DNA of 13,578 nt from the IMG/VR virus record IMGVR_UViG_3300029915_000364. One strand, written 5' to 3'. The notes beneath the pieces are model-generated. The model did not search any database. It worked only from the letters and a program-made list of their open reading frames with translations, and was not told the DNA's origin. The translations under genes were made by a program, and so were the position numbers. Origin of the DNA: a virus. Below, piece after piece: positions 3,555 to 3,590 of this stretch (the first letter of the stretch is position 1; each line of letters starts with the position of its first letter).

Positions 3555-3590
3555 ACAGTATACCGGGACTCACCGGGTTTGTCTAACATT
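3555..3590 (-). promoter_or_regulatory. Putative phage promoter, copy A of the conserved element (-35 TTAGACA, 17-nt spacer, -10 TATACT, then GT...GGAGGGAAACAC leader)
   Basis: Minus strand reads TGTTAGACAAACCCGGTGAGTCCCGGTATACTGTAAATGGAGGGAAACACTAATG. The core CCGGTATACTGT recurs upstream of two other genes (9290..9302 and 13400..13412) at the same distance from the ATG. Confidence 0.45.

Follow-up and report, generated by a model that had tools for sequence, protein, structure and literature searches.

Phages of the T4 type transcribe their early genes with the host σ70 polymerase, from promoters which pair a non-consensus -35 element (GTTTAC, at -36 to -31) with an A-rich UP-like tract and extra consensus positions (PMC1524935; PMC2988021). 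The middle promoters of T4 are marked by the MotA box, (a/t)(a/t)(a/t)TGCTTtA, located 12 +/- 1 bp from the -10 element (PMC2988021), and leaderless genes are recognised computationally by an accepted signature, a -10-like TANNNT hexamer some 12 bp ahead of the start codon (PMC3160421). Here we describe a promoter-like element that occurs three times in IMG/VR virus record IMGVR_UViG_3300029915_000364, a stretch of phage DNA of 13,578 nucleotides which was analysed at its full length (hereafter the window), and whose proteins recur in identical form on peat and bog metagenome contigs of the Joint Genome Institute (JGI), which are up to 36 kb long. Judged by its sequence and recurrence, the element would represent a real promoter class, known in kind and new in sequence, that is common to a family of uncultivated peat-bog phages.

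The sequence CCGGTATACTGT is present exactly three times in the window, always on the minus strand (3555-3566, 9290-9301 and 13400-13411), and none of 200 dinucleotide shuffles equalled the observed number of matches when up to two mismatches were allowed. As all three copies share one additional C, the core was extended to the 13-mer CCCGGTATACTGT (3555-3567, 9290-9302 and 13400-13412, referred to as sites 1, 2 and 3, respectively). Non-coding sequence accounts for 797 of the 13,578 bases (5.9%), and all three cores fall there and on the gene strand, a placement with P ~2.5e-5 for three cores positioned at random. A simple σ70 scan returned the same three sites as the best promoter-like matches of the window, listed in the order site 2 (TAGACA-18-TATACT), site 1 (TAGACA-17-TATACT) and site 3 (TAGCCA-18-TATACT). 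The -10 hexamer TATACT agrees with TATAAT at five of six positions in the window copies and in all 43 copies of the family described below, for the collection of which TATACT served as an anchor. The -35-like hexamers match TTGACA at five (TAGACA) or four (TAGCCA) of six positions, and the base at -34 is always A, not T.

An earlier note on this DNA had placed the core motif at these three positions, and they were recovered here, as were the TAGACA hexamer that it reported 17-18 nt upstream of TATACT in two copies (sites 1 and 2) and its three targets, a 241-amino-acid (241-aa) gene behind site 1, Ku behind site 2 (Pfam PF02735) and an rIIA-like gene behind site 3 (PHROG 612). Site 3, which the note had left without a -35 element, has TAGCCA as its -35-like hexamer, and this is also the family consensus. 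The start codon, anticipated at about 20-27 nt downstream, lies 20, 24 and 22 nt from the end of TATACT at sites 1, 2 and 3 (18, 22 and 20 nt from the 3' end of the core). A leader of GGAG and then AAACAC had been described for each copy; GGAG does follow all three, and sites 1 and 2 have AAACAC exactly, site 3 having AAACCAC.

The three sites differ in what surrounds the core. At site 1 the upstream part (3597-3580, on the minus strand like all window features given below) consists of a short A/T-rich tract, GAAAATTAATGT (3597-3586), and TAGACA (3585-3580), which a 17-nt spacer separates from the TATACT (3562-3557) of the core; there G at -14 and -13 precedes TATACT, and GT, the first two bases of the discriminator, follows it. 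The site scores 36.7 bits against the family profile (E 1.3e-9). Site 2 (43.1 bits) has its TAGACA at 9321-9316, 18 nt upstream of TATACT (9297-9292), and the 106-aa gene upstream of it (9319-9639) has the TAG of this hexamer as its stop codon. At site 3 (47.2 bits), the upstream part (13452-13426) comprises an UP-like tract, CAAAAAAAATCTCTAAAACAA (13452-13432), and TAGCCA (13431-13426), followed by AAAA, in agreement with the family consensus aaaaaattt.c..aAAaacTAGCCAAAA, and TATACT (13407-13402) stands at the 18-nt spacing. The UP-like tract of the family is matched at site 3, reduced to the short tract at site 1, and without a fit at site 2, where the position lies in coding sequence. A second TAGCCAAAAAAAA at 13444-13456 overlaps the stop codon of the UVR-domain gene; it precedes the site 3 box by 25 nt and occupies the place of the distal A/T tract of other copies. 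There is also a possible degenerate fourth copy before the R2K ATP-grasp gene (7882-7909; AAGCCA-17-GATACT, then GGAGG), which has G for T at -12 and is not significant in nhmmer (E = 36).

Beyond the window, an IMG/VR scan for TAG[AC]CA-N11-14-CCCGGTATACTGT found 4 contigs, the TAG[AC]CAAA version of the architecture occurs on 19 metagenome contigs from peat, bog and wetland samples, and the looser pattern TAGCCAAA-N11-14-GGTATACT occurs in 64 viral-contig stretches, with several contigs of 40-100 kb holding two to five copies each. When all fetched DNA was searched with a profile of 16 copies, 43 distinct copies reached the cut-off of at least 19 bits, seven of them outside every fetch pattern, and about 13 further degenerate copies were found besides. 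Most of the family was fetched with patterns that fix TAG[AC]CAAA and GGTATACT; the seven copies and the 13 degenerate ones are free of this bias. That the motif marks a promoter class, as had been proposed, is supported by these 43 copies of the same architecture in related or co-occurring phage contigs. Some of the contigs are demonstrably related to the window phage: a 98-kb contig, L081, has homologues of the window's gene for a major-vault-protein (MVP)-like protein and of its 195-aa gene at ~67% nucleotide identity, and another, L060, has homologues of a region with a second ATP-grasp gene and an HNH gene. The further 10 kb upstream that are available for the same phage on contig L027 contain no additional exact copy.

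The motif was also looked for in cellular genomes. A first strict scan of 185,579 bacterial and archaeal species genomes gave no match, and a second strict scan of the same genomes gave five, which is near the estimated chance number; none of the five (one of them in a Terracidiphilus metagenome-assembled genome) shows a fixed start-codon geometry or reaches a profile E <=0.01, and they therefore do not serve to identify the phage's host. The description of the motif as phage-specific accordingly holds as far as strict patterns over these genomes can test it, with nothing convincing among the matches. Among 50,697 phage records, none matched the whole window in a megablast search, and the matches of a tblastn search with rIIA are all distant (<=32% identity), so that no annotated relative could be used; in the literature searched, the motif strings turn up in no relevant context. 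A scan of viral contigs for a 15-mer produced mostly chance matches within genes, the sole true copy being that of contig L012 (4355-4417, 54.8 bits). This copy has neither an open reading frame (ORF) nor a Shine-Dalgarno sequence downstream and stands beside an integrase-like ORF on the opposite strand; it is a candidate for driving a non-coding RNA, for which an Rfam E-value search gave nothing credible.

Alignment of the 43 copies gives the consensus aaaaaattt.c..aAAaacTAGCCAAAacc ... cccGGTATACTgta.gT, or, in order, an A/T-rich UP-like tract, cTAGCCAAAA, the 18-nt spacing, sCGG-TATACT and GTRRGT. The tract, aaaaaattt.c..aAAaac, lies directly 5' of the upstream box, which reads TAGCCAAA(a) with the variants TAGACAAA, TATCCAAAA, TAGCTAAAA and TAACCAAAA, and whose conservation runs three to four bases past the -35 hexamer. 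The hexamers are 18 nt apart in 41 of 43 copies and 17 nt apart in the other two. Positions -17 to -13 read CCCGG in 19/43; here the G residues at -14 and -13 are near invariant, the C residues less so. TATACT is followed by the discriminator GTRRGT, of which the T at -1 is conserved (1.4 bits). The unforced and degenerate copies keep the T at the first position of the box, mostly an A at the second, the trailing AAA, and G-TATACT. In the family, GG-TATACT alone is near invariant, with a preference for CCC in front of it and for GT behind it. Read against this alignment, the 13-mer that the window copies have in common lies at the upper end of a preference and does not define the class.

The position of the element relative to what follows it is the most telling regularity of the family. 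Eighteen of the 43 copies have, at exactly 6 nt from TATACT, the ATG of an ORF that is 35 codons or longer, and no copy has one at 5 or 7 nt; the 18 span at least 11 unrelated gene families. Thirteen more copies have a Shine-Dalgarno G-run (GGAG, GAGG or GGGAG) starting at the same 6-nt point, and elsewhere such a run begins at 8 nt (three copies) or 9 nt (one copy). Chance alone would give fewer than one ATG at any set offset in 43 copies, and the offset was constrained neither by the fetch patterns nor by the ORF requirement. Because the 6-nt distance to ATG or Shine-Dalgarno recurs in 31 of 43 copies, we place +1 at 7 nt after TATACT, which is in keeping with the start at ~7 nt that had been predicted; that the seventh base is +1 would be the simplest reading of the pattern. 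A T at -1 together with a purine at +1 is also the usual preference of a start context.

On this assignment, the predicted leader of site 1 (3550-3534, 14 nt) would start with G 3550, the first base of GGAGGG (3550-3545), and continue through the spacer AAACACTA to the ATG at 3536-3534. That of site 2 (9285-9265, 18 nt) would start with A 9285, two bases before AAGGAG (9283-9278; this Shine-Dalgarno counts as 9 nt after TATACT), and proceed through AAACACCAAA to the ATG at 9267-9265. The leader predicted for site 3 (13395-13377, 16 nt) would again have its first base, G 13395, as the first base of the Shine-Dalgarno sequence (GGAGAG), with AAGAAACCAC before the ATG at 13379-13377. In none of the three window copies, then, does +1 coincide with the A of the start codon, as it does in the 18 family copies with ATG at this point. 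It is reasonable to postulate that one promoter class serves two message designs, one with the Shine-Dalgarno sequence at +1 and one with AUG at +1.

The predicted 5' ends are no more structured than shuffled sequence (z from +0.6 at site 1 to +1.6 at site 2), and an RNA element in the leader was rejected on these unstructured ends and on zero Rfam matches in the window. Of 28 gene starts compared in this phage, the three directly behind the promoters are alone in having AAACAC or AAACCAC in their leaders. The earlier note had suggested AAACAC as a translational signal; it does recur in the class leaders of some relatives (for example GGAGGAAACACC), and others have AGAAGA, AAAAAC or ATTCAC. 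What the class leaders share is an A-rich, T-poor spacer, and nothing in them marks AAACAC as a separate translational signal. The spacers of the class leaders contain 53% A, 22% C, 17% G and 7% T, a composition that fits AAACAC being one variant of an A-rich, T-poor and presumably unstructured spacer.

The class is also found at orthologous positions. L081 has a promoter of the class, CTAGCCAAAA ... CGGTATACT-agtggt-GGGAGAG, in front of its orthologue of the 241-aa gene. Contigs L025 and L026 belong to much more distant relatives (rIIA ~40% identity), and there rIIA and Ku are preceded by a -10 element (TATAAT or TATACT in L025, TAGATT in L026) with a Shine-Dalgarno run or, for Ku of L026, the ATG itself 5-6 nt on. 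The L026 homologues of the 241-aa and 195-aa genes have the same arrangement with TAGTTT and TAGAAT, the former as TAGCCGA-17-TAGTTT; the L026 rIIA leader, GGAGAGAGGACAAACCACATG, is almost identical to that of site 3; and at L026:13890-13928 Ku follows TACCTGA-17-TAGATT and 5 nt, then ATG, an arrangement from which its message would be leaderless. The upstream box of L026, TA(G/C)C(C/T)G at 18 nt before the -10 element, comes near TAGCCA, and that of L025 is AGCCGG, about 4 nt farther upstream. Lineage-specific boxes in these two contigs were considered as evidence for a phage-encoded factor, an argument that the re-alignment of the L026 box near TAGCCA leaves weak.

Terminator hairpins close transcription units of the window. 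An intrinsic terminator after rIIB (9674-9709) has a 12-bp G+C-rich stem followed by UUUAUUUU (-25.2 kcal/mol, z -4.7; none of 200 shuffles folds equally well), and a second, after the MVP-like gene and upstream of the 78-aa gene and site 1 (3868-3897), has UUUUU next to its stem (-20.2 kcal/mol, z -4.1). A weaker hairpin after Ku (8245-8273; -18.2 kcal/mol, z -2.5, poor U tract) is a possible terminator of the site 2 unit. From these positions the units are site 3 to rIIA-rIIB and its terminator, site 2 to Ku, and site 1 to the 241-aa gene and the genes that follow. In the relatives, the class precedes genes for a DinG-like helicase, a CCA-adding enzyme, a DUF6011 protein and many small ORFs without assignment, and in the DNA at hand, which consists of partial genomes, no structural gene was seen behind a copy. 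The promoter-proximal genes that could be characterised are non-structural, and the genes served would appear to be of early type.

Architecture, placement, recurrence and the fixed start-codon distance of the copies are direct observations. As to the reader, we consider it fairly probable from the sequence that each copy is a strong two-block σ70-family promoter recognised by the host RNA polymerase holoenzyme; the identity of the polymerase, the timing and the strength are what we infer. The copies have a canonical geometry, with A at -11 and T at -7 retained, and an UP-like tract lies upstream; Estrem et al. in 1998 reportedly derived an UP consensus of the type AAAWWTWTTTTnnAAAA, at -59 to -38. 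In such a promoter, the C-terminal domains of the α subunits would bind the A/T-rich tract at about -60 to -38, σ region 4 would contact TAGCCA or TAGACA at -36 to -31, and σ regions 3 and 2 would contact GG (-14, -13) and TATACT (-12 to -7). Initiation would occur at the purine 7 nt past TATACT, after the conserved T at -1, and the resulting mRNAs would be nearly without a 5' untranslated region: those of the window would begin at the Shine-Dalgarno sequence or 2 nt before it, and many of those of the relatives would begin with AUG, that is, be leaderless. The class would drive rIIA-rIIB, Ku, the 241-aa gene, the DinG-like helicase, the CCA-adding enzyme and many small ORFs, and may be regarded as a functional counterpart of T4-type early promoters.

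Several observations weigh against the host holoenzyme as the reader. The upstream box, TAGCCAAAA, is longer than a -35 hexamer and has A, never T, at -34, where σ70 prefers T, and 264 kb of family loci contain no TTGACN promoter of the same geometry; with this invariant A and the lack of TTGACN, the box is not obviously demanded by a canonical σ region 4. The extended -10 sequence is CGG and not TGn, conservation in TAG[AC]CAAA and GGTATACT is inflated by the fetch patterns that fixed them, and the absence of the strict motif from the species genomes means that it is not demonstrably host-like. The assignment is, moreover, a reading of sequence. Some of these points lend weight to the possibility, which we regard as rather unlikely, that the start is the same and host sigma reads only GG-TATACT, while cTAGCCAAAA is not a σ region 4 site and would be the target of a novel phage activator or of a sigma-remodelling pair analogous to MotA and AsiA, making the promoters a middle-type class that would come on once early proteins are present. 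In its favour, the box measures 9-10 bp with its AAA conserved past the hexamer, and it stands at the place of a MotA box and in lieu of a canonical -35 element; 13 of 16 bias-free copies have A at box position 2, there is no TTG variant among ~55 copies, and rIIB of T4 is a classical middle-promoter gene (PMC2988021). On contig L027, at 654-683, downstream of a tRNA cluster, a canonical TTGACA-18-TAATAT with GGAG 7 nt on may be a second promoter type, and this lone copy could be the true early type of the phage. But the box bears no relation to (a/t)3TGCTTtA, its distance from the -10 element is 14-15 bp and not 12 +/- 1 bp, the hexamer spacing of 17-18 nt fits contact by σ region 4 exactly, a full UP-like tract is present, and T4-like early promoters keep an odd -35 element without any phage factor (PMC1524935). 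Ten window proteins scanned with Pfam and PHROG contain no MotA or AsiA domain, in a genome that is incomplete. Were an activator or pair of this kind to exist, it would represent a second, independent appropriation of sigma, coupled to messages that start at the Shine-Dalgarno sequence or AUG.

It is still less probable, and in our view a slim chance, that the phages encode a σ70-family sigma factor, or carry a virion polymerase, whose -35 and -10 specificity is its own. Over many promoters the two blocks vary very little, as is typical of alternative sigma regulons, and the motif is absent from the bacterial genomes (185,579 scanned). Against this stand A at -11, T at -7 and the UP-like tract, which fit the housekeeping holoenzyme, and the two-block design at 17/18 nt and the non-conserved +1 to +6, which argue against a promoter of the T7-type single-subunit kind. 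A phmmer search with E. coli RpoD over 1,404 ORF segments from ~290 kb of family loci found no RpoD-like ORF, a weak negative given the partial genomes and the limited sensitivity. Very improbable, finally, is a role that is not primarily that of a promoter, be it an operator around the GTATAC palindrome, a recombination or gene-shuffling site, or a nuclease site. GTATAC is indeed a 6-bp palindrome, site 3 has an imperfect dyad of 14 nt, and repeated promoter-containing cassettes are known to mediate shuffling in T4-like phages, points which we count in favour of this view. However, the dyad is not common to sites 1 and 2, no stem-loop flanks the sites and no inverted repeat other than GTATAC lies within ~100 nt, and neither the fixed 6-nt distance in 31/43 copies nor the strict gene-strand orientation is expected of such a site. 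An operator or stem-loop cassette as the main function was rejected on the grounds of the unshared dyad and the lack of a flanking stem-loop; an operator that overlaps the promoter, as an added layer, is possible.

The minus strand carries all genes of the window. From the 5' side of that strand, these are the 3' end of the UVR-domain gene (ends 13454), rIIA (13379-10971; PHROG 612, E 1e-98), rIIB (10978-9746), the 106-aa gene (9639-9319), Ku (9267-8281; PF02735, E 2e-20), an 81-aa gene (8155-7910), the R2K ATP-grasp gene (7856-7032), a 39-aa gene (7039-6920), a PTH2-like gene (6933-6505), the gene for an 819-aa protein with major-vault-protein domains (6374-3915), the 78-aa gene (3857-3621), the 241-aa gene, whose function is not assigned (3536-2811), the 195-aa gene (2800-2213), a 65-aa gene (2157-1960) and a long ORF that leaves the window (1907-1). 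The rIIA homologue has a zinc-finger-like insertion of the CxxCxGxG type at residues ~90-123 (13000-13110), with weak matches to DnaJ_CXXCXGXG and Anti-TRAP (E ~5e-3) that remain under the Pfam thresholds. The 241-aa protein has a Cys/His-rich motif, GKCTCDHPIRY ... PVGSECINHF, which is kept in L081 and L026 (43% identity), and Pfam and PHROG searches gave it no family assignment. In the 819-aa protein (3915-6374), the domains are an MVP shoulder (PF11978, E 3.5e-26) and a vault repeat (PF17795, E 1e-9), and no PHROG family matches it; a homologue is present in L081. Its gene has another σ70-like promoter-like site upstream, with a leader of ~60 nt, and the strong terminator behind.

Two further observations were made on L027. 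A degenerate look-alike, TAGACA-17-TATCTT after TG, lies before a 96-aa gene outside the window (8956-8984) and is not significant. Some 8 kb upstream of the window, L027:1122-1985 contains ACATCCCCGGAAAGTCTCGGGGT six times without mismatch, in each case as a hairpin (CCCCGG/CTCGGGG) with GATTGAAA repeats after it, interleaved with genes for tRNA-Lys, Gln, Met and Arg; these repeats are of a different class from the promoter element.

Strong phage-specific promoters are already well known, and no general concept is changed by the present class. What it provides is a testable promoter definition of ~60 bp, with the start given to the base, for uncultivated peat and bog phages of ~100 kb, and with it transcription units and genes of early type can be annotated in their metagenomic genomes. 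The two translation designs served from one promoter offer a hint on the translation habits of the phages' host, and the conserved upstream box, being off consensus, is well suited to deciding between the host sigma and a phage factor as its reader.

When set beside the described systems, the class resembles several of them in part. A T7-type promoter is one contiguous block that covers ~23 bp (-17 to +6) and whose initial transcribed sequence is fixed. Highly uniform phage-specific promoters and a GGAG-like transcript start are features in common with it, whereas the present copies have two blocks at 17/18 nt and an A/T tract, +1 to +6 read AUG... or GGAG..., and no such polymerase was seen; the two-block structure and variable initial sequence exclude this type. 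In the promoter-plus-stem-loop shuffling cassettes of T4-like phages, the stem-loop adjoins an early promoter, and no stem-loop is present at any of the three sites. Leaderless-gene promoters are common in Actinobacteria and Deinococcus-Thermus, and the 18 family copies with TATACT exactly 6 nt before ATG are like them (PMC3160421), unlike the three window copies, which put a Shine-Dalgarno sequence and not AUG at or near +1.

With T4 middle promoters the class shares a good -10 element, a phage-specific box of 9-10 bp in the -35 place and possibly an UP tract, and rIIB is a target in T4; yet cTAGCCAAAA is unrelated to the MotA box and ends 14-15 bp from TATACT, outside the definition of that box, its first six bases match TTGACA at 4-5 of six positions with canonical spacing, and the window showed no homologue of motA or asiA. 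The likeness to T4-like early promoters, with their 'uber' UP/-35/TGn/-10 arrangement, extends further: each genome has many near-identical copies, which stand before early genes and before small novel ORFs, a conserved -35 variant specific to the phage occupies -36 to -31 (GTTTAC in T4, TAGCCA here) behind an A-rich UP-like tract, bases 5' of the -10 element are conserved, A at -11 and T at -7 are present, and rIIA is one of the genes behind such promoters. No block has the same sequence in the two classes, TGn is absent and CGG at -15 to -13 shares only the G at -14 with it, and the leaders here are 0-18 nt, with the Shine-Dalgarno sequence or AUG at +1. By analogy, then, the class would appear to be closest in its logic to the early promoters of the T4 type.

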